Origin: Gracilibacteraceae bacterium
Lineage (GTDB): Bacteria; Bacillota; Desulfitobacteriia; Desulfitobacteriales; Syntrophobotulaceae
DNA length: 64,000 nt
Assembly (NCBI GenBank): GCA_031270805.1
Contig: JAISWK010000089.1
Location: 18,235 to 82,234, forward strand
Reading direction: 5' to 3'
A model generated the notes under the pieces. That model searched no databases and was not told where the DNA came from. It worked only from the letters and a program-made list of their open reading frames with translations. This document shows positions 36,240 to 57,326 of the stretch, piece by piece. How positions within the stretch are numbered: the first letter of the stretch is position 1; every line of letters starts with the position of its first letter. A program made the translations under genes and the position numbers.

Positions 36240-36243
<4 letters not shown>
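35182..36243 (-). CDS. membrane protein with YdcF/ElyC/SanA (DUF218) domain
   Basis: N-terminal TM bundle then [12 protein letters not shown]...[23 protein letters not shown]...[11 protein letters not shown]...[11 protein letters not shown]. Its ATG overlaps the uvrA stop (ATGA). Confidence 0.75.
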
Positions 36244-39071
<2,828 letters not shown>

Positions 39072-39073
39072 GT

Positions 39074-41035
39074 TCAGCCCCTCAGTTCGATGATAGCGTC
39101 CCGCAATTCGGCGGCCCGTTCAAAATCCAGGTCTTTCGCGGCGGCGCGCATGTCTTTTTCCAGTTTTTTGATGAATTTCTCTTTTTCGCTCCGCGTCATT
39201 TTTTGGCCCTTGGTCACATAGACGGCCGGTTCCTCCGCCACCATCGTCGCTTCGGGCATCTCGCGCAGGTTTTTGCGGATAGTCTGGGGCGTTATCCCGA
39301 ACAGGCCGTTATATGCTTCCTGGAGGCGGCGGCGGCGTTCCGTCTCGCCGATAGCCGCCTGCATGGAGGCGGTCATCGTGTCGGCGTACATGAGTACTTT
39401 GCCCTCCACATTGCGGGCCGCGCGACCGATGGTCTGGATCAGCGAGCGTTCAGCCCGCAGAAAACCTTCTTTGTCGGCGTCCAGGATGGCGACGAGCGAG
39501 ACCTCCGGCAGGTCGAGTCCTTCCCGCAGCAAGTTGATGCCCACAAGTACGTCGATCTGGCCCCGGCGCAGTTCCTGCAGGATTTGCAGACGTTCCAGCG
39601 TGGCGATATCGGAATGTAAATAACGCACTTTAATATTGAGCTGCTTCAAATAGTCGGTCAGATCTTCGGCCATGCGCTTGGTCAGCGTCGTCACCAGCGT
39701 GCGCTCGTTGCGGGCGATGCGGCGGCGGATTTCCCCGAGCAAATGGTCGATCTGCCCGGCGGACGGCCACACCTCTACCACGGGATCCAGCAGCCCGGTC
39801 GGACGGATGATTTGTTCGACCACTTCCGGGCAGTGTTCCAGTTCGTAGGGGCCCGGCGTCGCGCTCAAATAGATGCGCTGCGGCGTCATCAGGTCGAATT
39901 CCTCAAAGCGCAGGGGCCGGTTGTCCAAGGCAGAGGGCAGGCGGAAGCCGTACTGCACAAGCGTCGTTTTGCGCGACTGGTCGCCGACGTACATGGCCCG
40001 CACCTGCGGCAGCGTCTGATGCGATTCGTCAACGAAGAGGAGAAAATCACGCGGGAAAAAATGGAGCAAGGTGTACGGCGTTTCGCCGGGCCGGCGAAAA
40101 GTGATGTGGCGGGAGTAGTTTTCAATCCCGTTGCAAAAACCCATTTCGCGCAGCATTTCCACATCGTAGCGCGTGCGCTGTTCCAGGCGCTGCGCTTCCA
40201 GCAGCTTGTTTTCCCGCTGTAGTTCGGCCAGACGTTCCTCCAGTTCGGCCTCGATATTTTCCACGGCCGCGAGTACTTTACTCCGCTCCGTCACATAGTG
40301 CGAGTTCGGAAAAACAGAGACATGCCGGCGTTCGGACAATATTTCCCCCGTCAGAATATTGATTTCATACAGATGTTCTATTTCGTCACCGAACATCTCC
40401 ACCCGAATCGCCTCTTCGCTTGACCCGGCCGGGCAAATCTCCACCGTGTCGCCGCGCGCCCGGAATGTGCCGCGGGAAAACGAAGCATCGTTGCGGTCGT
40501 ACTGAATCTCCACGAGACGGCGCAGGATGGCGTTGCGGTCGATTTCCTGCCCCTGGCGGAGCGAAAGCACCATGTCGCGGTATTCATCCGGCGAACCGAG
40601 ACCGTAAATGCAGGAAACACTGGCGACGACGATAACGTCCCGGCGCTCAAAGAGGGCGGCGGTAGCCGAGTGGCGCAGTTTCTCTATTTCTTCGTTCACG
40701 GAGGCGTCTTTTTCAATATAGATGTCGCTGGAAGGCACATAGGCTTCCGGTTGGTAATAATCATAATAACTTACAAAATATTCCACAGAATTGTGGGGGA
40801 AAAATTCGCGGAATTCCCCGTAGAGCTGACCGGCCAGCGTCTTGTTATGGGCAAGCACCAGAGCCGGCCGATTCAGGCGGGCGATAATATTGGCCATCGT
40901 AAAAGTTTTACCGGAACCGGTCACTCCCAGCAGCGTCTGGTGCCGGCGCCCTTCCAGCACGCCCTGCAGCAGTTTTTCCACGGCCTGAGGCTGATCGCCG
41001 GACATGCCGTAAGGCGCTTGCAGTTGAAATTCCAT
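39074..41035 (-). CDS. uvrB: excinuclease ABC subunit B
   Basis: 653 aa with [14 protein letters not shown] box, and a C-terminal UVR domain ([19 protein letters not shown]). Confidence 0.97.
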
Positions 41036-43749: not shown

Positions 43750-45822
43750 CTAATCTAGCAATTTGCGGGTGGAGGCAGCGCTGATGACGATCGTGGACGC
43801 ATTGTGCAGCACGGCCGACGTATTCGCGGCAACGGCGCCGCTCAACCCCAAGGCAAGCAGAGCCGAGTTAAAAGCGATTATGCCGCGGAAATTGCCGCGG
43901 ACGCGGCGCATGAGCCGCAGGCCCAGCCGCCGGACGACCACCAGGTCGCCCAGATCGGAGTTGAGCAAAGTGATGTCGGCCGTTTCCCGGGCCAGATCGG
44001 AGGCGTCCTTCATGGCTACCGAAACGTCGGCCGCAGCTAAAGCCGGCGAATCATTGACCCCGTCTCCCACCATGACGACCTTGCGCCCCTGCGCTTTCAG
44101 GGCGGTGATGATCGCGGCTTTATCTTCCGGCAAAACCTGGGAACGCCAGTCGGTAATGCCGATATGCTCCGCCACCGCCCGGGCCGTGGCCTCGCTGTCT
44201 CCGGTCAGCATGATCACATGCCGGAACCCCGCGCGGCGCAGATTTTCTACTACGGCCGCCGCTTCCGGCCGCGGCGGGTCACTGATGCACAAAAAGCCCA
44301 CCAGCTTGCCGTCCTGGGCCAGGTAGAGGACGGAATCGCCGCCCGCTTCCCGCTTCACGGCCTCCAGTTCCGCCGGGGCAAAACGAACGCCCTCGTCCTC
44401 CTCGACAAAATGACGGCTGCCGATGATGGTGCGCCGGTTCCGGTAATGAGTGGCAATGCCGTGCGCGACCACGTATTCGACTTCCGCGTGTTCTTCTTCA
44501 TGCCGGATTCCTTCTTCCTGGGCCCGCCGCACCACTGCCTGGGCGACGCTATGCGGAAAATGTTCCTCCAGGCAGGCCGCCGTGCGCAGCACTTCGTCCC
44601 GCTCCCGGCCGGCGAACGGCACGACCTTGCTGACCCGGGGACTGGCCACCGTCAGGGTGCCGGTTTTGTCAAAAACAATCGTGTCGGCTTCGGCCATGCT
44701 TTCGAGGAATTTGCCGCCCTTGACCATGATGCGGACGGAGGCGGCCTCGCGCATAGCGGAAATGACCGCGATCGGCGTGGATAATTTGATGGCGCAGGAA
44801 TAATCGACGAGCAGAACGGAAGCCGCTTTGTTCCAATCGCCGCTAAAGAGCAAGACCGCGGCGGAGAGGATAAAACTGTAAGGGACAATTTTATCGGCCA
44901 GCCGTTCGGATCGGGCTTGGATACCGGCTTTGAGGGCCTCGGATCGATCGATCATTTCCACCAGCCGGCCGATGCGGCTTTCATCCGCCAGCGCGCGCGC
45001 CTCCACGATCAGACGCCCTTCCTCCAGCACCGTCCCGGCAAAAACGCTGTGCCCCGCCGTTTTCAGCACCGCCAGCGGTTCGCCGGTCATGGAGGATTGA
45101 TTTACCCCCGCTTCTCCGGCTCGCACCGTTCCGTCCACCGGAATCAGCTGACCGGCCCCGACGATGACCCGGTCGCCGATGACCAGAGCGGTGGCGGGAA
45201 TAGAAAGCTCCCGTCCCTCTCTTTCCACCCACACCGTGTCAATATTGAGGGCCAGGCTCCGGGCCAGCGCGTTTTTGGCCCGGCGGCGCGTATAGTCTTC
45301 CAGCAGTTCCGAGAGGCCGAGCAGGAACATAATGGACGAGGCCGTGTCAAAATTGCCCTGCAGGATCGACACGCCGACGGCGGAGGCGTCCAGAGCCTCC
45401 ACGCTCAGCTTACCCGCGCGCAGACTGCGCCAGCCGGAAAAAATATATCGCAGGCCGCGCCAGACTGTCAGCGCGCTGCGGAGGGGCGCGGGTAGACACA
45501 ATTGCGCCGCGCGTTTCAGCACGGTTTTATACAGGCGCTCCTTAAAATCCAGATCGATGCCCAGCGGCGTTTCCGCGCCGGACGGCGCCGGAAGCAGAGC
45601 GTCCGGCCGCAGAGCGGACAGCGCCCGCAGCAGTTCACTCCGGTTATCGCCCTGATAGCAGATCAGGATGCTGCCCGTGAGATAACTCGTCCGTGCTTCG
45701 AGGACTCCCGGCAGCGCCGCCACCGCCGCGGCCAGGGCAAAGCCCTCTTCCCGCGAAAACGCGTAACGGCCGCAACGCACACGGAGGCGCTGCGGCAAAT
45801 CGCTTACAATCCTGTATTTCAA
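43750..45822 (-). CDS. P1B-type (heavy-metal-like) P-type ATPase with non-canonical TM metal motif
   Basis: DKTGTLT, GDGVNDSPALAAADV, TGEP. The CPC position reads VDYSCAIKLSTP. The N-terminal ferredoxin-like domain has no CxxC. Confidence 0.8.
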   Translation of the reverse strand: MKYRIVSDLPQRLRVRCGRYAFSREEGFALAAAVAALPGVLEARTSYLTGSILICYQGDNRSELLRALSALRPDALLPAPSGAETPLGIDLDFKERLYKTVLKRAAQLCLPAPLRSALTVWRGLRYIFSGWRSLRAGKLSVEALDASAVGVSILQGNFDTASSIMFLLGLSELLEDYTRRRAKNALARSLALNIDTVWVEREGRELSIPATALVIGDRVIVGAGQLIPVDGTVRAGEAGVNQSSMTGEPLAVLKTAGHSVFAGTVLEEGRLIVEARALADESRIGRLVEMIDRSEALKAGIQARSERLADKIVPYSFILSAAVLLFSGDWNKAASVLLVDYSCAIKLSTPIAVISAMREAASVRIMVKGGKFLESMAEADTIVFDKTGTLTVASPRVSKVVPFAGRERDEVLRTAACLEEHFPHSVAQAVVRRAQEEGIRHEEEHAEVEYVVAHGIATHYRNRRTIIGSRHFVEEDEGVRFAPAELEAVKREAGGDSVLYLAQDGKLVGFLCISDPPRPEAAAVVENLRRAGFRHVIMLTGDSEATARAVAEHIGITDWRSQVLPEDKAAIITALKAQGRKVVMVGDGVNDSPALAAADVSVAMKDASDLARETADITLLNSDLGDLVVVRRLGLRLMRRVRGNFRGIIAFNSALLALGLSGAVAANTSAVLHNASTIVISAASTRKLLD

Positions 45823-45833
45823 AACTAAGCCTC

Positions 45834-46124
45834 TTATTCCTGTTCGTTCGTACCGGCGCTTTGCTCAGCCTCGTCCGCGTCTTCGTCCCACGCTTCCGCC
45901 GCCGCGCTCTGTTTGGCCTCGGCGTAAATATCCTGCGCTTCCTCTTTTATGGATTCAAACGCCGTCATTATACTGTCCTGCAACTTCAGACCGCCGGCCA
46001 TGACCTGTACGGCCGCCTGGCGCGCCTGCCGGCTTTTCAGCAGCTTGCCGCCCAAAATCGTCGCCGCGCCGCCGCCGATGAAGGAGAGTACCCGCGGGTG
46101 AATGAGCAATTTGATCAAGCCCAT
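45834..46124 (-). CDS. small hypothetical protein (hydrophobic N-terminus, acidic tail), co-operonic with the ATPase
   Basis: 96-aa ORF 12 nt upstream of the ATPase start, with a consensus promoter upstream. No family recognised. Confidence 0.5.
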   Translation of the reverse strand: MGLIKLLIHPRVLSFIGGGAATILGGKLLKSRQARQAAVQVMAGGLKLQDSIMTAFESIKEEAQDIYAEAKQSAAAEAWDEDADEAEQSAGTNEQE

Positions 46125-46173: not shown

Positions 46174-46202
46174 GACTGCTTCCATTATACAGCGGGCAGA
46201 TG
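46174..46202 (-). promoter_or_regulatory. consensus sigma-A promoter TTGACA-17-TATAAT (minus strand) for the small-protein/ATPase operon
   Basis: The reverse complement reads ttgaca gaaacatctgcccgctg tataat. Spacer counted as 17. Confidence 0.65.
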
Positions 46203-46243
46203 TTTCTGTCAAGCTACCTGCGGCTAATTTTGTGGCTACTCAC
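46203..46243 (-). promoter_or_regulatory. two 19-nt direct repeats, 22-bp period, abutting the -35 (candidate activator/response-regulator site)
   Basis: Minus strand reads gaaattagccgtgagtagc and aaaattagccgcaggtagc, 15 of 19 identical. Confidence 0.4.
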
Positions 46244-46252
46244 GGCTAATTT

Positions 46253-46344
46253 CCAATTGTCCCGCTCCTGCTCTAATTCCCCTCCTTTGGAGGGGTGCCG
46301 GCGAAGCCGGCGGGGTGGTTGCCAATTGTACATTGTACAATGCC
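46253..46344. repeat. mosaic intergenic repeat, family A copy 1
   Basis: ccaattgt...cccctcc-ttt-ggagggg t gccggc-gaa-gccggc ggggtggttg ccaattgtacattgtacaatg. Homologous in layout to 55350..55437. Confidence 0.7.
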
Positions 46345-48519
46345 TTAAGCCTTGCAAATCCTACACGGTATGCCATTATACGTCCACGTCCCCACATAGC
46401 TGTCCGAGGTTTCCATGTCGCCCGAGGTCAACACATTGGCGTTCGCCCGCCACATTCCGCCCAAATGCGGCTCGTTCCCCGTTTCCTCCGGAAACCACCA
46501 GCCGTATTCCACGGCGACGGTGTTTTTGGCCCCGGGCGTGATGTGGACGGTAAAAATCTGCTCGCCGCGCTCCGTCTGCACCAGGACGTCGTCCCCCTCG
46601 ACCAGACCGTGCGCCGCCGCCGTTTGGGCGGCCATCTCCGCCCACGGCGCCGGGTGCAGGCGGCGGAGCGCGGGCAGCCAGCGATGGCTGGAAGCGTAAT
46701 AGGGGTGGTAGCGCGAACCGGTCAGCAAACGCAAGGGAAAGCCCTCGGCTGCGGGCAGGGGCGCGGGCGGCGGAATCGCCGGTTCGGCCAGCGAACGCAA
46801 AAACTCGCTCGCCAGCTCGACCTTGCCCGTCCCGGTGGCAAAACCGCGCTCTTTCCCGTCCCCGGCCGGCAAAAGGTAGGAGAAATAGCTGTTGGCGGCA
46901 ACCGGCGCGTAAAGCCCCGTTTGGCAGAAACTATCCCAGCCGAGGCCCAAGGGCTCGAAGGCGGCCGCCAGCGCCTGTTCATAGTCCGGCCAGGGCCAGC
47001 GCCCTTCCTGCCCCAGGCGTTCGCCGAGACTCTTGAAAAAATCGTAGTCGGTGCGCCGCTCAAAATAGGGCGCCGCCGCCCCGTTGCCGCCGTAGGCAAT
47101 ATTGGCGATGCCCGCCTTTGTTTCCAGCACCGGTTTTTCCAGCGGCCCGGCAATCGGCAGGATATAATCCGCCAGCATGGCGGTCGGTGTGGGAAAAAGT
47201 TCCAGCGAAACCAGCAAGTCCAGGCTGTGGAGCGCCCGGTGTACCAGGCGACTGTCCGCCTGGGTCAGAAGGGGGTTGGCCGCCATGACGATCAGGGCCC
47301 GCACCGGATAGGGTTCGCCTTTGAGCATGGCCTGCCAGACGGCGTTCGGGTGCGCCGAGGTCAAATAGCGTTCCGGTGGGCGGAACCCGTGCCCGGCCAA
47401 AATCGCCGCCAGTTTTTCGTAGGCGGCGTAAGTTTGTAATTTGAGCCGGGGAGCGTTCAGCTGCGCCGCTTTAAGCTCGGCCCCCATCTCGGCGCTGAGC
47501 TCAAAATCCACTTCCGGCCGGAAGTCCGGCATGGCGGTGAGCAGCGACGCGCCGGGGTAGTCCAGGTTGCCGGTTATGGCGCGCAGGGCGGCGATGGCCT
47601 GGTGAGTCGGCAGACTGTTTTGGCCGAGTTGATCCAGCCCGCGCCCGGTATAGAGCGTGGAGGGCGGCTCTTTAGCGTAAAGCCTGGCCAGGCGGGTGAT
47701 TTCCTCCGCCGCCAGTCCGCAGACCCCGGCCACCTCGCCCGGCGAATAGGGCCCGGTGTGGGCCGTGAGCTCCGGGAAACCGTGGCACCATTCGGCCACG
47801 AAGTCCCGGTCATAGAGCTTTTCCCTGATGACCACATGGAGCAGAGCCAGGGCCAGGTAGGGGTCGGCCCCCGGCTGAATCGGCAGGTAGAGCGTAGCTT
47901 CCCTGGCCGTCGCGGTTTGGCGCGGGTCAATGACCACGAGTTCGCCCCCGTTCTGGCGGAACTGGCGCACGGTCTGCCAAAACAGCGAATTATCCGAATC
48001 GGCGGGGTTTACGCCCCAGAGCACGGCGCAATTCGTGATCCCGGGCATAAGCTCCATGTCTATGTGCCGGCCGTACATGAGCAGATTTGTCCAGACGCCG
48101 GGATTCCAGCAGATCTGCCCGATACCCATGTTGTTGGGGCTGCCGAACAGCGTCATAAAACGGTGCAGCGGCCAGTAGGTCGTGTGGGGGCCGCCGATGG
48201 CGCTGGCCAGCGTCTTGGCCCCATATTGCCCCTTGAGATCGCTCAAGCGGTCGCTGATCTCCGCCAGGGCCGTTTCCCAGCTGATTTGCTCGAACTGTCC
48301 CGCCCCGCGCTCCCCCGTCCGTTTGCGCGGAAAATTGATTCTGGCCGGGTGGGCCAAAAACTGAGGCGCCGTCGGCCAGCGGCGGCAGTGGCGCAATATA
48401 TTTTCGTCGTAGGGAAATCGCCCCGGATCGGGGCGCACCTTGATTAAGCGCCCGTCCTCCACGGTTGCGAGCAGTCCGCATTGATAGCCGCAAAAACGGC
48501 AATTTACATGTTTTTCCAT
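46345..48519 (-). CDS. molybdopterin (bis-PGD) oxidoreductase catalytic subunit, acetylene-hydratase/transhydroxylase-like clade, no Tat signal (MopB-2)
   Basis: Start trimmed to the ATG after GAGGG (MEKHVNCRFCGYQCG, the CxxCxxxC FeS0 motif). Blocks FPTPTAMLADYILPIAG, GTGKVELAS, GWWFPEE. Confidence 0.8.
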   Translation of the reverse strand: MEKHVNCRFCGYQCGLLATVEDGRLIKVRPDPGRFPYDENILRHCRRWPTAPQFLAHPARINFPRKRTGERGAGQFEQISWETALAEISDRLSDLKGQYGAKTLASAIGGPHTTYWPLHRFMTLFGSPNNMGIGQICWNPGVWTNLLMYGRHIDMELMPGITNCAVLWGVNPADSDNSLFWQTVRQFRQNGGELVVIDPRQTATAREATLYLPIQPGADPYLALALLHVVIREKLYDRDFVAEWCHGFPELTAHTGPYSPGEVAGVCGLAAEEITRLARLYAKEPPSTLYTGRGLDQLGQNSLPTHQAIAALRAITGNLDYPGASLLTAMPDFRPEVDFELSAEMGAELKAAQLNAPRLKLQTYAAYEKLAAILAGHGFRPPERYLTSAHPNAVWQAMLKGEPYPVRALIVMAANPLLTQADSRLVHRALHSLDLLVSLELFPTPTAMLADYILPIAGPLEKPVLETKAGIANIAYGGNGAAAPYFERRTDYDFFKSLGERLGQEGRWPWPDYEQALAAAFEPLGLGWDSFCQTGLYAPVAANSYFSYLLPAGDGKERGFATGTGKVELASEFLRSLAEPAIPPPAPLPAAEGFPLRLLTGSRYHPYYASSHRWLPALRRLHPAPWAEMAAQTAAAHGLVEGDDVLVQTERGEQIFTVHITPGAKNTVAVEYGWWFPEETGNEPHLGGMWRANANVLTSGDMETSDSYVGTWTYNGIPCRICKA

Positions 48520-48540
48520 AATGGCCCTCGCCGCCCGGCG

Positions 48541-48564
48541 CAACCGCAACCGCAACCGCAACCG
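48541..48564. repeat. (CAACCG)x4 tandem hexamer in the radical-SAM/MopB-2 spacer
   Basis: caaccgcaaccgcaaccgcaaccg read directly. It lies 22-45 nt upstream of the MopB-2 ATG. Confidence 0.9.
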
Positions 48565-48602
48565 CAGGAGTACGCCTGACGCCTCCGCGGCGTCCTCTTG
48601 TC

Positions 48603-49955
48603 TCAAGGCTCAACTCTCAGCCTGTTCCCCTCCGCATCGGTCAAATGGTAGAGGCAGAACGGCACTAAGCGCCCGTCGCGGCTCATCACCACCATGCTGC
48701 ATTCGCGGGTTTTCTGCAAATCCAGGTTATAACAGTCCATATAGTTCATCACCACTATGGCCAGCCCCGCCCGATGGCGCGGAAAACGCCGCCGGGCGAT
48801 GTCCGCCAGCACGGAACCCTGCGGGCTCTGGGGGTCGAAGGCCGCCAGATAGTCCGCTTCCGTAATCAGGCGCGTCAAGGGCGTCGGTTTGCCGCCTCTG
48901 GACAGCAGGTAGGTGGAAGAAGTGCAGAGGGGGTGCGAGCAGCCCAGAGACCAAAAGTCGCCGGGTTCGAGCAGCCCGCCGCTCTGCGCCGCCAGCAGCC
49001 GAATTACGTCGCCCTGGGTCAGCCTTTTTTGCCTGCGGGCGTCGAAGCGCCGAAATTCCGCCGGGGCGCCGCTTTGACCGACCTGGAACCGCCCGGAACC
49101 GAAGGCCGGTTGATAAGCGACGCCGGCCACAATATCCCGGTTGTCCAGGGCGAAGCGCAAGACGTCGCCGATCTGGCTCTCATTCACCCCTTCGATTATA
49201 GTCATAGCCAGGCAAATTTGCAAGCCGGCCCGGCGGCAATTGTCCAGCACGGCGAGCTTATCGGCCAAAAGCGCCGTCCCCCGCGTTTTTTGGAACACCG
49301 CGTCCGTCACGCCGTCAAATTGCAGGTAAATCCCGGTGGCCCCCGCCTCCGCCAGCGCCGCCGCGTAAGCCTCGTCCCGGGCGAGGGCGAGGCCGTTCGT
49401 GTTGATCTCGATGAACTCGAAGCCCACGGAGCGCCCCAGGCGGATGATTGCCGGCAAGTCGGGCCGGATGGTCGGCTCGCCGCCCGTCACCTGAATGGCG
49501 GTCTGGGGAGTCGTCGCCTGCATAATGTGTTCAAAGGTCCGGCCCAGTTCCTCCAGGGTCGGATCCGGCGGCGCCTCGCCCCGGCGTTCTTCTGCCGACA
49601 TGAAACAGACGGGGCAGCGCAGGTTGCACCGCTCCGTCACCTCGATTTCCACCAAGGTCGCCCGCCGGGCGTGGCGGGCGCAGAAGCCGCAGTCCAGTGG
49701 ACAGCCCCGCTTCGCCGCCGAGCGGAAAAAACGGGGCGGGGCAGGGGGCAGACGCAACGAATTCATTCGGAGAAAACTATCTTTGTCCGGCCAAAGACAG
49801 GATTCCGTCCGGCCGTGCTCCGGGCAGTCCTTGACCAGCCATACTTCGTTGCCCTGCGCCTCCACCCGGGCGGGGCTGCTTTTCAGGCAAAAGGGACAGA
49901 GCGCTTCCGTCGGCCAGAGGAGTTCCCCGTTCCCGGCCAAATCCGCAGGGCTCAT
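48603..49955 (-). CDS. radical SAM protein with N-terminal Cys knuckles and an additional Cx3Cx2C cluster motif
   Basis: Start is the ATG overlapping the NrfD stop (ATGA). CPFC...CPEHG, CPLDCGFC, canonical CNLRCPVC, TGGEPT. Confidence 0.8.
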   Translation of the reverse strand: MSPADLAGNGELLWPTEALCPFCLKSSPARVEAQGNEVWLVKDCPEHGRTESCLWPDKDSFLRMNSLRLPPAPPRFFRSAAKRGCPLDCGFCARHARRATLVEIEVTERCNLRCPVCFMSAEERRGEAPPDPTLEELGRTFEHIMQATTPQTAIQVTGGEPTIRPDLPAIIRLGRSVGFEFIEINTNGLALARDEAYAAALAEAGATGIYLQFDGVTDAVFQKTRGTALLADKLAVLDNCRRAGLQICLAMTIIEGVNESQIGDVLRFALDNRDIVAGVAYQPAFGSGRFQVGQSGAPAEFRRFDARRQKRLTQGDVIRLLAAQSGGLLEPGDFWSLGCSHPLCTSSTYLLSRGGKPTPLTRLITEADYLAAFDPQSPQGSVLADIARRRFPRHRAGLAIVVMNYMDCYNLDLQKTRECSMVVMSRDGRLVPFCLYHLTDAEGNRLRVEP

Positions 49956-50875
49956 TTCCCGGCGCGGATAAAGGCTTCGTCGCCGATCGGCAGACGCGAG
50001 CGGAACAATTGCTCGCCGGGCAGGAAGGTGCGGTTCTCGCCCCCTTTGATCACCCAAAGACGCATCAGCGCGCCGCCGCCCAGAGCGAGCAGGGCGCCGC
50101 CAACCTGCAGAGCCGGGGCGCTCAGCCCCACGAGCAGACCCGGCAGCACCATGCCGCCCGCGAGGAACAGCCCGAAGCCCGGGGCCAAATCGCCCTTGGC
50201 CCAGCGCTCCGCCGCCGCGACCTCATGCTCCGTGCCGGTGCTGCGCTTCACATAGACATAGGCGACCCAGAGGACGGCTTGGAGCAGGAGCAGGAGGGCC
50301 GTGCCGACAGCGAGCGGCTGAACTAGGGCCTGGTTCGGGGCGGGCAGGGCCGCGTTGCACAGCAGGTGCAGGGCTAAACCCGTCGCCAGGGAAGAAAGCA
50401 GGAACAGGGGAATTAACCCCGGCCCGTGCCAGAAAGGCCGCGCTTTGTGTCTGGCCAGCAGCACGCCCGGGTAAGCCGCGACAATGAGACCGCACAGCAC
50501 GCACAATCCCGCCACCAGCTTTTCCAGGATCGCCACCCCCGCCCAGGGGAAGATGGGGAAGGCGAAACTGGCGAGGACAAAGCCCAGCCCCGCCGTCAGC
50601 GTCATATTCCAGGCCCCGAAGGTCAGAATGGCTTTCGGGTTGGTGAACACCCGCCAGGCCCGCAGCGGCTTGCCCAATTCCAGAATCAGAAGCAGGGCGC
50701 CGATTCCGACGCCGACCGCGCCGACCGCGCCGACCAGGGGCGAGCTGAGTCCGGGCGCCGCGAAAGTCAGCACTCCCGCTGCGGCGACCGCCGCCGCGCC
50801 CATGCCGGCAAAGAAAAAATCCGCCGCCAACATCCAGCCCCAGTTGTCGTCATGATGTTTAACAGCCACAGTCAT
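49952..50875 (-). CDS. NrfD/PsrC/DmsC-type integral membrane subunit
   Basis: 307 aa with about 8 hydrophobic helices. Starts HHDDNWGWMLAADFFFAGMGA, typical of the NrfD family. The start may be the GTG at 50869 (better RBS spacing). Confidence 0.7.
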   Translation of the reverse strand: MTVAVKHHDDNWGWMLAADFFFAGMGAAAVAAAGVLTFAAPGLSSPLVGAVGAVGVGIGALLLILELGKPLRAWRVFTNPKAILTFGAWNMTLTAGLGFVLASFAFPIFPWAGVAILEKLVAGLCVLCGLIVAAYPGVLLARHKARPFWHGPGLIPLFLLSSLATGLALHLLCNAALPAPNQALVQPLAVGTALLLLLQAVLWVAYVYVKRSTGTEHEVAAAERWAKGDLAPGFGLFLAGGMVLPGLLVGLSAPALQVGGALLALGGGALMRLWVIKGGENRTFLPGEQLFRSRLPIGDEAFIRAGK

Positions 50876-50908
50876 ATCCTCCTTGCTTGGGACTCGTTCC
50901 CCGAATCC

Positions 50909-51445
50909 TCAATTGATATAGTAGACGCCGGGCTGCGTGTTCAGCTCGCCCAAAAGCCATTGTCCGCCCTTCGCGCCGACGAGCTGCGCCACCTCGCTGG
51001 CCGGGTCGTCCAAGTCGCCGAAAGAACGGGCTTTCTGATGGCAGGTATTCACGCAATAAGGTTTTTCCCCCGCGTCCACCCGCTCCTTGCAGAAGGTACA
51101 TTTCCAGGCGACGCCGTCATGGCTGCTTCTGGCCCCGTAAGGGCAGCTCATAATGCAGGCCTTGCAGCCGACGCACATATCCTGATCCACCCAGACGATG
51201 CCGTCTTCCCGCTGCTGGGAAGCCTTCGTCGGGCAGGCGTCCACGCAGGGCGTGTTCCGGCAGTGCATACACAGAAGCGGAACGTGGGTCATGTGGACAT
51301 GGGGAAAAAGCCCCGTCACCCCGTTGGTGACCACTGGATTGTAAATCACGCTCACCGGCAGATCATTGTGTACCCGGCAGGCGACGGTGCAGCTCTGGCA
51401 GCCCACGCATTTTCCCCGGTCGATAACCATTACATACTGCGGCAC
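50909..51445 (-). CDS. 4Fe-4S dicluster-domain electron-transfer subunit (DmsB/PsrB-like, four Cys groups)
   Basis: GTG start after AAGGGGGG. CVGCQSCTVAC, CMHCRNTPCVDACP, CVGCKACIMSCP, CTFC...C..C. Confidence 0.85.
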   Translation of the reverse strand: MPQYVMVIDRGKCVGCQSCTVACRVHNDLPVSVIYNPVVTNGVTGLFPHVHMTHVPLLCMHCRNTPCVDACPTKASQQREDGIVWVDQDMCVGCKACIMSCPYGARSSHDGVAWKCTFCKERVDAGEKPYCVNTCHQKARSFGDLDDPASEVAQLVGAKGGQWLLGELNTQPGVYYIN

Positions 51446-51458
51446 TTGCTTTCCCCCC

Positions 51459-53678
51459 TTACTCCGCTTTGTAAATCCGGCACAGGAGACCGCGGTTGGC
51501 CCAGCTGCCGCCCAAGGGATCGCAGTGGGCGTCCTCGGTGCTGGTCAGGACATTGGCGTTGGACTCCAGGCAGCCGCCCAGTTCCGGCAGCCGCATATCC
51601 CGCTCCGGGAACCACCAGCCGCGCTGGGTCATCACGACCCGGGGCATGACGGCTTCGGTCAGATTGGCCTTTTGCCGGATCCGGCCCCGCCGGGTCTCGA
51701 TCCACACCCAGTCGCCGTTCTTGATCCCATAGTGTCCCGCCGTGCGCGGGTTAATGTCCGTATAAGGTTCGTGGGCCAGAAAACGGACTGACGGCAGGTT
51801 AAAATGTTCCGAGTGGTGGTAGGGCATGAATCCGCCGGCGGTGGTCAGCACCAGCGGAAATTCCTCCGCCAGTTCCGGATTCGCCGTCTCGCTTTCCGCC
51901 GGGGGGACATACACCGGCAGGGGAGGATAGCCCAACTGTTCCAAAATGCTGGATTTGAGCTCGACCTTGCCCGAGGGCGTGCCGAACCCGTGCTCCAGGT
52001 AACGGTTGAACTCCCGCTCCGGATAGTGGAAGCGCGGCCACTCGACAAAGGCGTCGTAGCTCTCCGAGCCGTAGAAGTTCTCCGCGAGATTGGCGATCTG
52101 GTAAAAATAGGCGTCTTCCAAAGTTTCCCACGGCCAGTGTTCCGCCTGACCCAGCCGCAGCCCGAGCAGCCGCCAGAAGTCGAAGTCCGTCTTGCGCTGA
52201 TAAAGCGGGGCAATCGCCCGCTGCGACGCCACCAGGGCGTCGGAGACGCCGTAATTTGTGTGGACGGACGGGCGTTCCATCGAACCGGCAATCGGCAGCA
52301 CATAATCCGCCAGCATGGCGGTCGGGGTCAGAAAATAATCGCAGCAGGTCATGAACTCCACTTTTTCCAGCGCCGCCAGCACTTCCCGGCTGTTGCCGTA
52401 AGAATTGACCGGATTGGTGGCCGAAACCAGGAGGGCCCGCACCTGGTAGGGCTTGCCGCTCAGGATGGCCCGGTAAACCGACGGCGGGTGGGCCTCGCAC
52501 ATCCATTCGGCGGTCGGCGCCTTGCCCCAGAACTTCTTCGACTGCTCGGCGATCAGCGTGTAGCCCGGCCAGGTGGTCAGTTTGTATTTATCCGCCCCCA
52601 GCTGCTTGCCTTTCTGTTCTTCCGGCAAAAGGTCGTTGGCTTCCATTTCCTCGTCGGTCAGGTAGTCCTGGGCCGGGCCGGTCAGGATGTCGGCTCCGGG
52701 CCCGTCCAGGTTGCCGGTCAAGGCCCGGAGGATGGCGCGGGCGTGCATACATTCGCCGGCGGGAGGGCCCTGCTGATCCACTGCCGGCGCCCACTGGATA
52801 TTGCCCGGGGTATTGGCGGCGTACATGCGCGCCCCGGCCCGAATCTGCTCCGGGTCCAGCCAGGTCAGCTCCGCCGCCCATTCCGGCGTGAAATCCTTCA
52901 CATGCTTGCGCAACTCTTTGAAGCCTTCGCAGTAATTTTTGACAAAATCGGCGTTGTGCAGTTTCTCCGTAATGATGACATTGATCCAGGCCAGCGCCAG
53001 GGCCAGGTCGGAACCGGGCCGGATCGGCAGCCACAGGTCGGCCTTGGCGGCGCTCTCCGTGTAGCGGGGGTCGATGACGATGACTTTCAGGCCATTCTCC
53101 CGCTGCAGGTTGGTAAAACCGGCCTGGGCCGGCATACTGGAGGCGCCGGGATTCTGGCCCCACAGCACGATACAGCGCGCCTGGCCCACGTCGATCTCAA
53201 AAGGGCACCAGCCATAAACGGTCATTTCCACCATAAAAGTAGGAATCCAGCACAAATGAGCGTTATGGAAACTGTTCGGGCTGCCGAAAGCGTTCATAAA
53301 ACGCCGCCGGGCCCAATCGTCCGTGCGCAGGGTGCCGCCCGCCGTCGCCACCGCTTCGGCGCCGGATTCGGCCCTGATCTGCTCCAGCTTCGCGCCGATT
53401 TCGTCAATCGCCTGCTCCCAGGAAATGGATTCCCACTGGCCGCTGCCCTTGGGCCCGATCCGTTTGAGCGGGTGGTTGACCCTGTCCGGGTGGTGCAGGT
53501 GCTGAAGCTGCAAGTTGCCGCGGCAGCAAAGACCGCCGCTTGAAGCCGGGTGATCCGGGTCGCCTTCAAACCGCAGCAGTTCCCCGTCCTTGACGTAGGC
53601 GAGTACGCCGCAGTTATTATGACAGAAGTAGCAGCAACATTTCCGCACTTCCACGCCGGCTTCCGATTCGTTGCTCAT
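51459..53678 (-). CDS. molybdopterin (bis-PGD) oxidoreductase catalytic subunit, acetylene-hydratase/transhydroxylase-like clade, no Tat signal (MopB-1)
   Basis: Start trimmed to the ATG after GGGGGAG (MSNESEAGVEVRKCCCYFCHNNCG). Blocks RRFMNAFGSPNS, FLTPTAMLADYVLPIAG, GTPSGKVELKSSILEQLGYPPLP, RGWWFPE. Confidence 0.82.
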   Translation of the reverse strand: MSNESEAGVEVRKCCCYFCHNNCGVLAYVKDGELLRFEGDPDHPASSGGLCCRGNLQLQHLHHPDRVNHPLKRIGPKGSGQWESISWEQAIDEIGAKLEQIRAESGAEAVATAGGTLRTDDWARRRFMNAFGSPNSFHNAHLCWIPTFMVEMTVYGWCPFEIDVGQARCIVLWGQNPGASSMPAQAGFTNLQRENGLKVIVIDPRYTESAAKADLWLPIRPGSDLALALAWINVIITEKLHNADFVKNYCEGFKELRKHVKDFTPEWAAELTWLDPEQIRAGARMYAANTPGNIQWAPAVDQQGPPAGECMHARAILRALTGNLDGPGADILTGPAQDYLTDEEMEANDLLPEEQKGKQLGADKYKLTTWPGYTLIAEQSKKFWGKAPTAEWMCEAHPPSVYRAILSGKPYQVRALLVSATNPVNSYGNSREVLAALEKVEFMTCCDYFLTPTAMLADYVLPIAGSMERPSVHTNYGVSDALVASQRAIAPLYQRKTDFDFWRLLGLRLGQAEHWPWETLEDAYFYQIANLAENFYGSESYDAFVEWPRFHYPEREFNRYLEHGFGTPSGKVELKSSILEQLGYPPLPVYVPPAESETANPELAEEFPLVLTTAGGFMPYHHSEHFNLPSVRFLAHEPYTDINPRTAGHYGIKNGDWVWIETRRGRIRQKANLTEAVMPRVVMTQRGWWFPERDMRLPELGGCLESNANVLTSTEDAHCDPLGGSWANRGLLCRIYKAE

Positions 53679-53803: not shown

Positions 53804-53819
53804 TGCAAGAAATGTGCCA
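53804..53819 (-). promoter_or_regulatory. sigma-54-type -24/-12 promoter element (TGGCAC-N5-TTGCA)
   Basis: The reverse complement reads TGGCACATTTCTTGCA, about 125 nt upstream of the MopB-1 ATG. GG-N10-GC spacing verified by hand. Confidence 0.55.
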
Positions 53820-53986: not shown

Positions 53987-54063
53987 CAGTCTCAATTGCG
54001 TGAGTATACCGCAGTCGCGCTGCGGCTTCCGGTGTCAGGCAAAATTTGTGCGGGGGGTTTGTT

Positions 54064-55206
54064 ATGGAATACGTCGACTATGGCCAGACCGGACTCCGGG
54101 TTTCCCGTTTCGGGTTGGGCGGCATGAGGTTTCCGGCGGACGCCGGCGAGGCGATTCAAATGATTCGCTTCGCCATTGATAACGGCGTCAACTATATCGA
54201 CACGGCCTATGTTTACGGCGACAGCGAAGAAATCATCGGCCGGGCGCTGAAAGACGGTTATCGCGAGCGCGTCGTCCTGGCGACCAAGAGTCCGCTCTGG
54301 ACCGTCCGCAGCCACGCCGACTTTGAAAAAGGGCTGGACGAGCAGCTCCGCCGCCTCGGGGTCGATTATATTGACATTTACATGCACCACAACCTGTTTC
54401 AAAAACACTGGCAAAGGGTCAAGGATTTGGACGGCCTGGGCTTCCTGGATGATATGGTAAAAAAAGGTAAATGCCGTTTCCGCGGTTTTTCCATTCACGG
54501 CACGCTGGAAGCATTCCGGGAAGTGCTGGACGCCTACGATTGGGACATGGCCCAGATTCAGCTGAACATAATTGACGCCTGCCAGCAGGCGGGAGTCGCG
54601 GGGTTGCAATACGCGGCCGCTAAGGGCGTGCCGGTCGCGATTATGGAATCCCTGCGCGGCGGCGACTTAATCAATTTCGCGCCGCCGGGCGTGGACGAGC
54701 TGATCCGGGCCTTCCCCACGCGGCGTTCGCTGGCGGAGTGGTGCTTTCGCTGGCTTTACAATATGCCGGCGGCGACGGTCATCCTCAGCGGCACCTCGAC
54801 TTTGGCCCAATTGCAGGACAATATCCGTATTTTCGCGAACTCGGCCCCGAACGTGATGAACGCGGCGGAATTGGATTTGATCGAAAAAATCCGGACCCTG
54901 TTCGAGGCGGCGGCCGGCGTGGGCTGCACGGCCTGCAATTATTGTATGCCCTGCCCCCAGGGCGTGGCGATTCCCGAAATTATCCGCATGTACAAGAACC
55001 TGCTCCGCAATCCGAACTATCGCATTGACAAAATGTATTACCACCGCTCCGTCATCCCCAAGGGCAATGGTGCGGATCAATGTATGGACTGCGGCGTTTG
55101 TGCGGAAAAATGTCCGCAGTCGCTGCCGATCGCCGAGGTTTTGCGCCAGGCGCATGAGGCGCTGGGAACCTACATGCGCCTGATGTATGAACCGGAAGAG
55201 GGGTAA
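54064..55206 (+). CDS. aldo/keto reductase with C-terminal 2x[4Fe-4S] ferredoxin-like domain
   Basis: MEYVDYGQTGLRVSRFGLGGMRF, IDTAYVYGDSEE. C-terminal CTACNYCMPCPQG...CMDCGVCAEKCPQ. Confidence 0.85.
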   Translation: MEYVDYGQTGLRVSRFGLGGMRFPADAGEAIQMIRFAIDNGVNYIDTAYVYGDSEEIIGRALKDGYRERVVLATKSPLWTVRSHADFEKGLDEQLRRLGVDYIDIYMHHNLFQKHWQRVKDLDGLGFLDDMVKKGKCRFRGFSIHGTLEAFREVLDAYDWDMAQIQLNIIDACQQAGVAGLQYAAAKGVPVAIMESLRGGDLINFAPPGVDELIRAFPTRRSLAEWCFRWLYNMPAATVILSGTSTLAQLQDNIRIFANSAPNVMNAAELDLIEKIRTLFEAAAGVGCTACNYCMPCPQGVAIPEIIRMYKNLLRNPNYRIDKMYYHRSVIPKGNGADQCMDCGVCAEKCPQSLPIAEVLRQAHEALGTYMRLMYEPEEG

Positions 55207-55437: not shown

Positions 55438-55480
55438 CTTGCCCCTTGCCGCAACGTGAACATAAAAGGTGGGACTAAAC

Positions 55481-56236
55481 ATGACGAAAATAGGTGAGTT
55501 GATCCGGGAAGAAGCTGCGAACTTGCCCCTGGACGATTCGAGCCGGGAATCCGCCCGGGCGTTTGACCGCGCCCTCCGGCCGGAAGAAGCGGCCGCCTGC
55601 CTCCTCCGGATCGGTCTCGCGCCGGAGGACTTTCTCGGCGCCCCCCGGACGGGAGAAGCCCTCAGCCGCCTGGTGGCGGCGCACCAGCGGACAGTGCCGT
55701 TTGAAAACCTGGAAGCGGTGGAGGAAAGGCAGACGCCGTCCCTGCGGATCGATGATCTCTGGCAGAAGATCGTCCAGCGAGAGCGCGGGGGCTGGTGCTA
55801 TGAACTGAACGGCCTGTTCGCCGCTCTGCTGCGCGGTCTGGGCTACAGGACGACGGCCCATATCGCCAATATTTGCAAGAATGATCAGATCATCACCGGG
55901 CCGCCCCGGCACCGGATCAACCTGGCCTACCTGCCGGAAGGGGTCTTTTTCTGCGACGTCGGTTTCGGCGGCATCGCCGCGCCGGGTTTTGCGCCGTTTT
56001 ACACCGATCACGCCCTGCAGGCGGGGCCGGGAGGGACTTTTGTGTTCCGCCCGTTCGGCGCGGGGGGCAAAATCCTCTGCCAGAGCAAGGAGGGCCGCGA
56101 AACGCCGCTGATGGAGATTGAGCCCGCTCCGCGGGAGGGAACATTCTTCCTGCCTTACAATGAGTACAGCGCCCACGACCCCGGTTCCCCGTTCATCCGG
56201 CAGGCGATCAAGCGGCTGCCGGAATGGGCGGGTTAG
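55481..56236 (+). CDS. arylamine N-acetyltransferase (NAT family)
   Basis: RTVPFENLEAV, catalytic-Cys context RGGWCYELNGLF, His/Asp context HRINLAYL...FCDVGFGG. ATG after AAGGTGGG. Confidence 0.85.
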   Translation: MTKIGELIREEAANLPLDDSSRESARAFDRALRPEEAAACLLRIGLAPEDFLGAPRTGEALSRLVAAHQRTVPFENLEAVEERQTPSLRIDDLWQKIVQRERGGWCYELNGLFAALLRGLGYRTTAHIANICKNDQIITGPPRHRINLAYLPEGVFFCDVGFGGIAAPGFAPFYTDHALQAGPGGTFVFRPFGAGGKILCQSKEGRETPLMEIEPAPREGTFFLPYNEYSAHDPGSPFIRQAIKRLPEWAG

Positions 56237-56961: not shown

Positions 56962-57187
56962 GTTCTGTGGGGCAAGGGAAGGAGTGAGCGAATGAGTCTG
57001 AGTTTGAGACGCTGCGCCGTATGGCGCCCTCCGTAGCCCGCCGGATTGCTATCCGCGGTGTGCATGTTTTAAGGGGGTCGGAGGCGAGGAAATGAGGCGG
57101 CCGGTCTTGCTGCTGATTCCGCCGGACGCCGCGCGCTTCGTTCCCCGCAATGACAGTGAATCGGATGCAATGCAATGTACGTTGTGC

Positions 57188-57280
57188 GTATGTGGATTCT
57201 GCGACGGAGGCGCGACCCCCGGTAATGGAACCGGCGCGCCTCCGCGCAGGCAGTTCGGCTTGGGCGGCTCGGAGACTCGC
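57188..57280. repeat. mosaic intergenic repeat, family B copy 1 (62-nt core plus 29-nt module)
   Basis: The 62-nt core is 57 of 62 identical to 59750..59811. The 29-mer at 57252..57280 is the exact reverse complement of 59914..59942. Confidence 0.85.
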
Positions 57281-57326
57281 CGGGAGCCTGTTGCACTCGT
57301 TTTTTCTCGGAAAGGAGAAAAAAAAC

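Follow-up and report, generated by a model that had tools for sequence, protein, structure and literature searches.

An apparently cytoplasm-facing molybdoenzyme cassette combining two catalytic paralogues with a radical-SAM enzyme of predicted Tes fold in a Gracilibacteraceae bacterium and its relatives

Of the systems described so far, SoeABC of Allochromatium vinosum and Aquifex aeolicus, in which a MopB catalytic subunit, an iron-sulfur (FeS) protein and an NrfD-type protein are proposed to form a cytoplasm-facing complex with an inverted eight-helix anchor and no export signal (PMC8076601), is by analogy the closest in architecture and orientation to the locus that we discuss here. This locus is a set of five co-directional genes on the minus strand (46345-53678) of a 64,000-nucleotide stretch of DNA from a Gracilibacteraceae bacterium (contig JAISWK010000089.1; the whole stretch is called the window below), which, as read from the listing of its open reading frames (ORFs) and their translations, encode a first molybdopterin enzyme (MopB-1), an FeS protein, an NrfD-type anchor, a radical S-adenosylmethionine (radical-SAM) enzyme and a second molybdopterin enzyme (MopB-2). 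It differs from SoeABC, to which we liken it by description only, in that the catalytic subunit is acetylene-hydratase-like, in that a further MopB and a radical-SAM enzyme are present, and in that no sulfur-metabolism genes lie nearby or are found among the conserved neighbours of the cassette.

Other described systems resemble parts of the locus. PsrABC and PhsABC have the same subunit plan: the FeS protein aligns with PsrB, PhsA is the best NCBIfam match of the catalytic subunits, and the anchor belongs to Pfam NrfD. Here, however, there is no twin-arginine (Tat) leader, the charge bias of the anchor is opposite to what the P-side termini of PsrC would imply, and the PhsA score is less than half its cutoff. 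Acetylene hydratase of Pelobacter (Syntrophotalea) acetylenicus (PDB 2e7z) is likewise a cytoplasmic enzyme that lacks a Tat leader, holds a [4Fe-4S] cluster near its N-terminus and binds the metal through a Cys, but that enzyme stands alone and carries out no net redox reaction, whereas MopB-1 comes with a dedicated electron-transfer chain to the membrane. The catechol dehydroxylases (Dadh, Hcdh; Dodh/Cldh) have been described as the clade of enzymes with a bis-molybdopterin guanine dinucleotide cofactor that lies nearest acetylene hydratase, and the Gordonibacter type among them is Tat-less and soluble without an anchor, has a small 4Fe-4S partner and is encoded beside major facilitator superfamily (MFS) transporters (PMC7028382). 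A third MopB found in relatives of our locus, together with its 111-aa ferredoxin and MFS genes, fits this published description (PMC7028382), the comparison again being one of description; MFS genes and a small 4Fe-4S partner are absent from the window, and in the relatives they accompany the third MopB rather than MopB-1 or MopB-2. The E. lenta dehydroxylases differ in being Tat-exported, neither they nor the Gordonibacter type have been reported with a radical-SAM gene, and, set against the diversified gut dehydroxylases, MopB-1 is unusually conserved across phyla (62-71%).

PadBCD of Thauera and Aromatoleum is a membrane-bound Mo-Fe-S enzyme of the dimethyl sulfoxide reductase family that oxidises a cytoplasmic aromatic bound to coenzyme A, taking the oxygen from water and passing the electrons to quinone. 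By description it would serve, in functional terms, as a precedent for a hydroxylating MopB complex that faces the cytoplasm and is linked to quinone; to our knowledge, the pad operon contains neither a radical-SAM gene nor a second MopB paralogue.

The window locus comprises MopB-1 (51459..53678; 739 aa), a bis-pyranopterin molybdenum or tungsten (Mo/W) catalytic subunit which by sequence belongs to the acetylene-hydratase-like branch and has no Tat leader; a PsrB-like four-[4Fe-4S] ferredoxin (50909..51445; 178 aa) with a GTG start and no signal peptide; an NrfD/PsrC-type membrane anchor of eight helices (49952..50875; 307 aa) whose termini and long loops are predicted to be cytoplasmic; a radical-SAM enzyme with the Tes/GDGT-MAS - HMPTM - TrsS architecture (48603..49955; 450 aa); and MopB-2 (46345..48519; 724 aa), a paralogous acetylene-hydratase-like Mo/W catalytic subunit with neither a Tat leader nor a dedicated FeS partner. 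An earlier note on this DNA, made from the sequence alone, had placed five minus-strand genes here, separated by spacers of 13-83 nt or a 4-nt ATGA overlap, and we find all five ORFs at those coordinates, with spacers of 13, 33 and 83 nt and the ATGA overlap read directly. The cassette encodes a complex iron-sulfur molybdoenzyme in what appears to be a rare inverted orientation, to which a further catalytic paralogue and a radical-SAM enzyme of Tes fold are added. We propose, with a probability that we put at roughly 0.55, that the operon encodes a quinone-linked cytoplasmic Mo/W oxidoreductase which acts, together with the radical-SAM enzyme and the second MopB, on an imported small organic substrate.

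A full-text literature search (on the gene combination, TrsS, DUF169/DUF2064 and Desulfitobacterium molybdoenzymes) returned no description of the five-gene combination. The earlier note had been unable to assign the arrangement to any characterised system; this stands for the combination of five genes, but not for its orientation, which has a predicted precedent in SoeABC. The cassette would be a second, and much more widespread, inverted cytoplasm-facing NrfD-type complex beside SoeABC, and as such it bears on how these complexes conserve energy, while the joining of radical-SAM and bis-pyranopterin enzymes in one operon is a combination of which we found no description in the literature. 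Its carriers are strict anaerobes of soils, sediments, bioreactors and guts, among them Desulfitobacterium, Dehalobacter, Sporomusaceae, Geobacter and other Desulfuromonadia, Anaerolineae and Eggerthellaceae (Gordonibacter, Adlercreutzia). Since several of these are cultivated isolates, the function is experimentally approachable. In D. hafniense, a function can be predicted for only a few of 53 molybdoenzymes (PMC3306737).

Two catalytic paralogues and the orientation of the anchor

Both MopB proteins match the Pfam families Molybdop_Fe4S4, Molybdopterin and Molydop_binding above cutoff, and they align with each other over their full length at 38% identity (E 1e-147). Every shared block on which the earlier note had based their paralogy is present in this alignment, and the N-termini that it quoted are correct. 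The best PDB match of both is acetylene hydratase (2e7z), again over the full length, with 422 bits and 34% identity for MopB-1 and 272 bits and 29% identity for MopB-2, against 240 and 171 bits, respectively, for PsrA. By sequence match acetylene hydratase is nearer to both than any other solved structure in the PDB, which is not to say that it is their nearest neighbour in a tree, and the pair is more like acetylene hydratase than like respiratory reductases, as had been said of it before. A resemblance to pyrogallol transhydroxylase, which had been suggested in the same breath, finds no support: at E<=1e-10 the PDB matches do not include the large subunit of that enzyme, and its small subunit matches the FeS protein only weakly. 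Whether the two fall into a characterised respiratory-reductase family was a further question raised by the earlier note; neither reaches any curated NCBIfam cutoff, the best match being PhsA with 315 bits for MopB-1 and 216 bits for MopB-2 (cutoff 694), and DmsA/YnfE, TtrA, ArrA, NapA, FdhA and other respiratory families score still further below their cutoffs.

We compared active sites by aligning 45 MopB-1 and 54 MopB-2 sequences to acetylene hydratase. The four cysteines of the FS0 cluster are invariant in both families, the metal ligand Cys141 is Cys in all 45 MopB-1 and all 54 MopB-2 sequences, and the position of Lys48 holds an invariant Arg in both families; judged from these residues, both enzymes have redox-competent cofactor sites. 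At the position of the catalytic, water-activating Asp13 we find His in 44 of 44 MopB-1 homologues and Gly in 53 of 53 MopB-2 homologues, so that the Asp following the second cluster Cys is indeed missing, as had been noticed in the window proteins. The hydrophobic ring around the substrate of acetylene hydratase, which we take to consist of Ile14, Ile113, Ile142, Trp179, Trp293 and Trp472, is altered as well. With the caveat that these assignments depend on the alignment, MopB-1 has Gln or Asn for Ile14, a gap at Ile113, Trp for Ile142, a gap at Trp179 and Tyr for Trp472 while keeping Trp293, and MopB-2 has Tyr for Ile14, a gap at Ile113, Trp for Ile142, Ser or Thr for Trp293 and Ala or Gly for Trp472 while keeping Trp179. 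Because Asp13 is replaced by His or Gly and most of the ring residues are changed, neither MopB is an acetylene hydratase, and we reject that function for both. MopB-1 and MopB-2 are two distinct orthologous groups, each with its own invariant active site. Across phyla the MopB-1 orthologues are 62-71% identical, a degree of conservation that points to one conserved, probably common, substrate.

The MopB-1 orthologues of Coriobacteriia (860-990 aa; L071:1067-3967, P0191-P0239) carry a C-terminal extension of about 200 aa made of Tyr/Trp/Asp-rich repeats of the form GWLxxPxTxxYHDAxxGxxYDAA...DExTGKxYxM, to which Pfam gives the label OCRE. We considered an extracellular role for this domain and set it aside, given that the N-termini of these proteins have no signal.

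The FeS protein (Pfam Fer4_11, with four Cys clusters in the translation) finds its best PDB match in PsrB of T. thermophilus (2vpw_B, 160 bits), to which it aligns end to end from residue 1; it begins at its first cluster domain, as mature PsrB does, and it is closest to PsrB, DsrO and TtrB. The anchor matches Pfam NrfD with 62 bits (cutoff 25.8) and NrfD_2 with 57 bits and has eight hydrophobic segments. Searched with phmmer against PDB sequences it gives no match to PsrC, being too divergent, and for that reason we argue its topology from the distribution of charge. In 54 homologues, the N-terminus, loops 2-3, 4-5 and 6-7 and the C-terminus contain on average 15.7 Lys and Arg residues, against 0.6 in the other four loops, which under the positive-inside rule would put both ends of the protein and its long loops on the cytoplasmic side. 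In PsrC both ends lie on the P-side, while SoeC is expected to be inverted because SoeAB is predicted to face the N-side (PMC8076601). The anchor thus appears, from its charge bias, to be inverted relative to PsrC and to resemble SoeC, an orientation consistent with a cytoplasmic MopB-1 and FeS protein.

A Tat leader would be recognisable as a twin arginine followed by a hydrophobic stretch ahead of the FS0 motif. Such a leader occurs on no upstream in-frame extension of either MopB in the window, nor on the longest ORFs of 44 MopB-1 and 50 MopB-2 homologues, nor on the Coriobacteriia orthologues, which bears out the earlier observation, made on the two window proteins, that they are Tat-less. 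That the FeS and NrfD partners are of the PsrABC/DmsABC kind is likewise borne out, the one being PsrB-like and the other of NrfD type. A cytoplasm-facing MopB-FeS-NrfD complex is, on the other hand, less singular than it had seemed: SoeABC is predicted to be oriented likewise (PMC8076601), and the orientation alone is therefore not unprecedented.

One could suppose, against this orientation, that the locus encodes an ordinary periplasm-facing reductase of the polysulfide or thiosulfate type whose export signal has been missed, the radical-SAM enzyme and the second MopB being unrelated neighbours. The NCBIfam ranking, with PhsA as best match of both MopB, and the kinship of the FeS subunit with PsrB, DsrO and TtrB would fit such a reductase. 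However, the PhsA score of 315 bits falls far short of 694, acetylene hydratase outscores PsrA nearly two-fold for MopB-1, a Tat motif is missing from about 94 homologues even in their longest ORFs, the charge bias of the anchor is inverted, and the five genes occur together in at least four phyla. We regard a missed export signal as scarcely credible.

The radical-SAM enzyme and its relation to Tes

The earlier identification of the embedded gene as a radical-SAM gene is confirmed by the Pfam domains of its 450-aa product (Zn_ribbon_HMPTM and Radical_SAM) and by a predicted fold like that of GDGT-MAS, the Tes homologue of M. jannaschii (PDB 7tol). Against NCBIfam the protein scores 382 bits with TrsS (cutoff 490) and 305 bits with Tes (cutoff 450), in both cases below cutoff. 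It matches 7tol with an E value of 1e-73 and about 30% identity and aligns through all Cys motifs, with about 65 GDGT-MAS residues between the two aligned blocks missing. The two proteins share a domain plan consisting of an N-terminal Cys/His zinc-ribbon, a GCPxDCGxC motif, the CxxxCxxC cluster, SHxxC and a C-terminal PFC. The residues C110/C114/C117, C20/C23/C44/H47, C85/C89/C92, C339/C344 and C419/C434 do not vary among 20 homologues. An AlphaFold model (pLDDT 76.9, pTM 0.84), for which 20 homologues were used, superimposes on 7tol with TM scores of 0.79/0.73 in Foldseek (E 1e-35), the next fold being MoaA at 0.48. In this model, the enzyme has the Tes/GDGT-MAS fold. The likeness to Tes/GDGT-MAS, HMPTM and TrsS in domain plan and fold goes together with clear differences from Tes and TrsS, in that our enzyme falls below the curated cutoffs, is encoded among Mo/W enzyme genes and occurs in bacteria not known for tetraethers.

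How far does the fold argue for a lipid substrate? If it were decisive, the radical-SAM enzyme would couple lipid tails or alkylate them, in the manner of Tes, with the NrfD protein holding the lipid or a quinone and the MopB enzymes hydroxylating or reducing it. The enzyme does have the GDGT-MAS fold with all of its metal-site motifs, its gene is in the window translationally coupled to that of a membrane protein, and bacterial Tes homologues have been proposed as synthases of membrane-spanning lipids (PMC8941075; PMC11868695). Yet the sigma-54/PAS activators, the TetR regulator and the solute transporters that accompany the cassette in relatives point to an inducible small-molecule system and not to housekeeping lipid synthesis, the enzyme lies under the curated Tes threshold (305 vs 450) and lacks the roughly 65 GDGT-MAS residues, and bacterial membrane-spanning lipids are currently tied to Mss and not to Tes homologues (PMC13274423). 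Modification of lipids or quinones thus seems to us very unlikely.

Surveys of branched glycerol dialkyl glycerol tetraether (brGDGT) production have searched with M. acetivorans MA_1486 as the query, at cutoffs of E<1e-50 and more than 20-30% identity (PMC8941075, PMC11868695). Judged from its own match, which is to 7tol and not to the survey query MA_1486, the radical-SAM enzyme would probably be counted in such surveys as a bacterial 'Tes homologue'. Its genomic context argues against a lipid role and warns against inferring brGDGT producers from homologues of this kind.

The cassette in relatives and a proposed mechanism

A pattern scan anchored on the radical-SAM enzyme, with one genome per GTDB species, found a relative of it in 307 species genomes, and the window proteins were mapped onto the best 80 of these 307 loci. 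Gene content was counted in the 42 genome loci with enough flanking DNA. All five genes are present in 30 of the 42; in eight, from Geopsychrobacteraceae, Malonomonas and Trichloromonas, MopB-1, the FeS protein, NrfD and the radical-SAM enzyme are present and MopB-2 gives way to a distant third MopB (31-34% identity); three have only MopB-2 near the radical-SAM gene, and one has the radical-SAM gene without the other four. The five-gene loci span Bacillota, Chloroflexota, Coriobacteriia and Desulfuromonadia, that is, at least four phyla, and D. hafniense Y51 (L085) has the full set. MopB-2 adjoins the radical-SAM gene or is near it in most loci. The gene order of the window is kept in Bacillota (Peptococcaceae, Desulfitobacterium, Dehalobacter, Negativicutes), Geobacter and Chloroflexota, and in Coriobacteriia the order is MopB-1 - FeS - NrfD - CCG - MopB-2 - DUF2064 - radical-SAM - DUF169/ferredoxin - GNAT. 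An independent scan of metagenomes, anchored on MopB-1, finds the FeS and NrfD genes after MopB-1 in every one of the 60 loci that extend 1.7 kb or more downstream, and, where at least 7.5 kb is available downstream of MopB-1, the radical-SAM gene and MopB-2 each in 19 of 28.

The earlier note had asked whether the radical-SAM gene and the second MopB are conserved in orthologous clusters, and they are, across phyla. Chance juxtaposition is rejected by this cross-phylum synteny, which emerges from both the radical-SAM-anchored and the MopB-1-anchored scans. MopB-1, the FeS protein and NrfD form an invariant core, and the radical-SAM enzyme and MopB-2 are frequent, separable partners. In five Coriobacteriales loci (L057, L062, L064, L067, L068) the order DUF2064 - radical-SAM - DUF169/ferredoxin - GNAT occurs with no MopB in the fetched flank, which reaches 10 kb upstream in L057 and L067 and less in the shorter loci; in these MopB-free loci the tightest partners of the radical-SAM enzyme are not molybdoenzymes.

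Further genes recur around the cassette, as found by clustering all ORFs of the radical-SAM-anchored genome loci (L001-L083; the metagenome loci are L086-L165). The commonest is a DUF2064 protein in 42 genome loci, whose best match is the arsenosugar-associated TIGR04282 (60 bits, cutoff 134), followed by DUF169 fused to a 2x[4Fe-4S] domain in 36, a small GNAT in 34, a CCG/HdrD-like protein in 33, a PhnP-like hydrolase of the metallo-beta-lactamase (MBL) fold in 26, a flavin-reductase-domain protein in 18, a PAS-containing sigma-54 activator flanking the cassette in 14 and, in 11, an MFS protein of the aromatic-acid/H+ symporter (AAHS) family (339 bits to TIGR00895, cutoff 418). A second MFS gene and a TetR regulator are also recurrent in the genome loci, molybdenum-cofactor biosynthesis genes often lie downstream of the cassette, and genes for a nucleoside hydrolase and an MTR-kinase-like protein are present in some clusters. 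Next to the cassette of Desulfitobacterium, Negativicutes and Desulfuromonadia lies a third MopB, likewise Tat-less, together with the 111-aa ferredoxin and MFS genes.

Some lineages have additions of their own. Six Chloroflexota loci (L018-L020, L025, L035, L069) have a second radical-SAM gene between the NrfD and CCG genes, together with an FmdE-domain protein and an ECF-type transporter composed of a duplicated ABC ATPase, a CbiQ-like T component and a small protein with an Oxidored_molyb-like domain. In 28 of the approximately 67 MopB-1-containing metagenome loci we find the MBL-fold hydrolase, mostly directly 5' of MopB-1 and in the same orientation; the window lacks it.

What, then, is the role of the radical-SAM enzyme within the cassette? 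It might be a maturase whose target, instead of a metabolic substrate, is the pyranopterin cofactor or else a residue in MopB-2 or in the two MopB enzymes alike. HMPTM acts on a pterin. That the radical-SAM family includes this enzyme would fit a maturase, as would the position of the gene next to MopB-2 in most loci, the rank of MoaA as second-best fold match, and the presence in extended clusters of the MobA/CofC-like DUF2064, FmdE-like and ECF-transporter genes, with molybdenum-cofactor biosynthesis genes often downstream. We nevertheless think a maturase unlikely: the closest solved relative, by a wide margin, is an enzyme of lipid C-C coupling, the radical-SAM gene is kept where a distant MopB replaces MopB-2 (eight loci) and where no MopB lies within 10 kb, MopB-1/FeS/NrfD exists without it, and the nucleoside hydrolase and MTR-kinase-like genes would fit the disposal of 5'-deoxyadenosine from a radical-SAM enzyme of high turnover.

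A side branch of the core pairs with a different radical-SAM enzyme. In L099/L138, L101 and L102 (about 11.8-18 kb in L099), MopB-1/FeS/NrfD occurs without the Tes-like radical-SAM enzyme and without MopB-2; after NrfD come a 249-aa ORF, an MFS gene and then a convergent arsenic-type set of an ArsS radical-SAM enzyme (432 bits, cutoff 300), an ArsM-family methyltransferase (183 bits, cutoff 263) and a MIP channel, with an MTR-kinase-like phosphotransferase in L099/L138 only. In L133 (about 10.4 kb) an ArsS-like gene lies directly after NrfD. As the core thus pairs with differing radical-SAM enzymes by lineage, one of them linked to arsenic, a role in organo-metalloid chemistry (As, perhaps Se or Sb) is kept alive: cytoplasmic reduction of a pentavalent organoarsenical oxide would fall to MopB-1/FeS/NrfD, and the making or breaking of a C-As bond to the radical-SAM enzyme. 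Besides the ArsS/ArsM/MIP/MTR-kinase-like set in L099/L138, L101 and L102 and the ArsS-like gene of L133, the arsenosugar-associated family as best match of DUF2064 and the arsenate, arsenite, selenium and sulfur enzymes of the wider MopB branch are consistent with this role. However, the link to ArsS is seen in 5 of 160 loci only, and the DUF2064 and ArsM matches are below threshold. The annotated frequent neighbours include no ars gene, where arsR, arsC, acr3 and arsB references were not searched and most low-frequency neighbours are unannotated; the window contains no homologue of ArsS, ArsM or MIP, and adjacency in one lineage could equally reflect a shared detoxification island. On balance we do not expect organo-metalloids to be the substrates and give this role little credence.

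We return to the proposal that the cassette handles an imported small organic substrate. Its first module would consist of MopB-1, the four-cluster ferredoxin and NrfD, built like PsrABC and mounted on the cytoplasmic side. MopB-1 would carry out an oxygen-atom-transfer redox step on a cytoplasmic substrate, that is, either a reductive deoxygenation or dehydroxylation or a water-dependent hydroxylation, and the four clusters would conduct electrons, in one direction or the other, between this subunit and menaquinone bound in NrfD. In NrfD proteins the quinone site adjoins the FeS subunit (PMC8076601), and the site should for this reason lie on the cytoplasmic side here, which would make the reaction electroneutral unless the anchor moves protons. 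The second module, the Tes/GDGT-MAS-fold radical-SAM enzyme and MopB-2, would perform further steps on the same substrate or on its product, with the radical-SAM enzyme activating an inert C-H bond or forming a C-C or carbon-heteroatom bond and MopB-2 then carrying out a second Mo/W-dependent hydration, hydroxylation or deoxygenation. Both modules would belong to one pathway, with the substrate imported on demand. By analogy with the transporters, the regulators and the dehydroxylase-like third MopB of the relatives, the substrate is probably an imported small organic compound to which the system responds by induction. The symporters of the relatives and their third MopB with its ferredoxin are a weak hint of aromatic chemistry, and by this analogy we consider a phenolic or aromatic acid a possible substrate, though only tentatively.

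In a more specific form of the proposal, the Tes-fold radical-SAM enzyme would activate an inert C-H or carbon-heteroatom bond (C-As, for example) of the imported compound and both MopB enzymes would process the product, one of them being wired via the inverted NrfD protein to the quinone pool and thereby feeding or draining the respiratory chain from the cytoplasmic side. The cassette would then stand for a type of anaerobic metabolism not recognised before. We find this form possible but rather doubtful. Were it true, a sizeable share of the 'bacterial Tes homologues' used as brGDGT markers would be this Mo/W system, unrelated to membrane-spanning lipids.

Several observations weigh against the imported-substrate proposal and its aromatic variant. 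The AAHS gene occurs in a minority of loci, 11 of the 80 genome loci and 7 of the 80 metagenome loci, and the commonest accessory genes (DUF2064, DUF169-ferredoxin, GNAT, CCG/HdrD-like, PhnP-like MBL) are not directed at aromatics. The 64-kb window has no homologue of any transporter, activator or accessory gene of the extended system. The two modules are separable, because MopB-1/FeS/NrfD is found without the radical-SAM gene or MopB-2 in some lineages and in a few loci of Coriobacteriales the radical-SAM gene has DUF2064, DUF169 and GNAT beside it but no MopB within 10 kb. Moreover, the full-text literature search gave no account of the cassette and no substrate, product or activity for any member, and Dadh, Dodh, Cldh, SoeA and PadB were compared with it by description only.

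Operon layout, control signals and the rest of the window

A purine-rich ribosome-binding site precedes each of the five starts. The MopB-1 ATG is preceded by GGGGGAG; between the TAA stop of MopB-1 and the GTG start of the FeS gene lie 13 nt containing GGGGGG, and the stop of the FeS gene is separated from the ATG of the anchor gene by 33 nt containing AAGGAGG. The stop of the anchor gene and the start of the radical-SAM gene share the 4-nt ATGA overlap, which in the window ties translation of the latter to that of a membrane protein. In the NCBI annotation the radical-SAM protein is five codons shorter (445 aa), which leaves this picture unaffected. The stop of the radical-SAM gene and the ATG of MopB-2 are 83 nt apart, and within this spacer the sequence reads as a tandem hexamer, (TGCGGT)x4.5, at 48539..48566 on the minus strand.

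On the same strand, 125 nt 5' of the MopB-1 ATG, a candidate sigma-54 (-24/-12) promoter, TGGCACATTTCTTGCA, at 53804..53819 matches the consensus TGGCAC-N5-TTGCW and is its sole exact match in the 64-kb window, where 0.07 would be expected. The same motif lies 5' of the MopB-1 orthologue in L001, L005, L007, L012 and L015, and 5' of the third MopB in two Desulfitobacterium-type loci and in L001. Control of the operon by sigma-54 is indicated by this promoter match together with the activators in relatives. At the other end of the cassette, 34-68 nt 3' of the MopB-2 stop, are two GC-rich hairpins, GCCGGC-TTC-GCCGGC and CCCCTCC-AAA-GGAGGGG (46279..46311, minus strand), which were not called by a terminator scan because no T-run follows them and which probably mark the end of the operon. 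Directly 3' of the hairpins, at 46184-46212 on the minus strand, a perfect sigma-70-type promoter, TTGACA-17-TATAAT, serves a separate unit of a DUF6110 gene (45834-46124) and a P-type ATPase gene (43750-45822), also on the minus strand. From the tight spacing, the single upstream sigma-54 promoter and the hairpins after the last gene we conclude that, as far as the sequence can tell, the five genes are one operon.

The genes around the operon offer no clue to its function. The arylamine N-acetyltransferase (NAT), the aldo/keto reductase with FeS domain, DUF6110, the BcrAD-type ATPase and the P-type ATPase of the window were found beside the cassette in none of 85 loci (L001-L085), and they carry no functional hint, having no counterpart near the cassette elsewhere; the aromatic substrates that the earlier note had read from the NAT and BcrA/D-type neighbours lose their basis accordingly. 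The neighbouring aryl-sulfotransferases that it mentioned were not located. The large ORF at 57150-59690 on the plus strand is something else, namely a secreted repeat or adhesin-like protein that begins with a signal anchor at its N-terminus, MKFHSQRIHRRRRVALLTAILLFIGLFAVLTVPVLA, and gives no match in Pfam. Divergent from the promoter region of the operon, the plus strand carries the aldo/keto reductase fused to 2x[4Fe-4S] (54046-55206) and the arylamine N-acetyltransferase (55469-56236). The GNAT of the relatives' clusters is not homologous to this acetyltransferase, and the parallel may be coincidence. About 5 kb downstream of the operon lie uvrB (39074-41035) and uvrA (36240-39071), both on the minus strand, and a cation-efflux (CDF) gene is found at 34010-35269.

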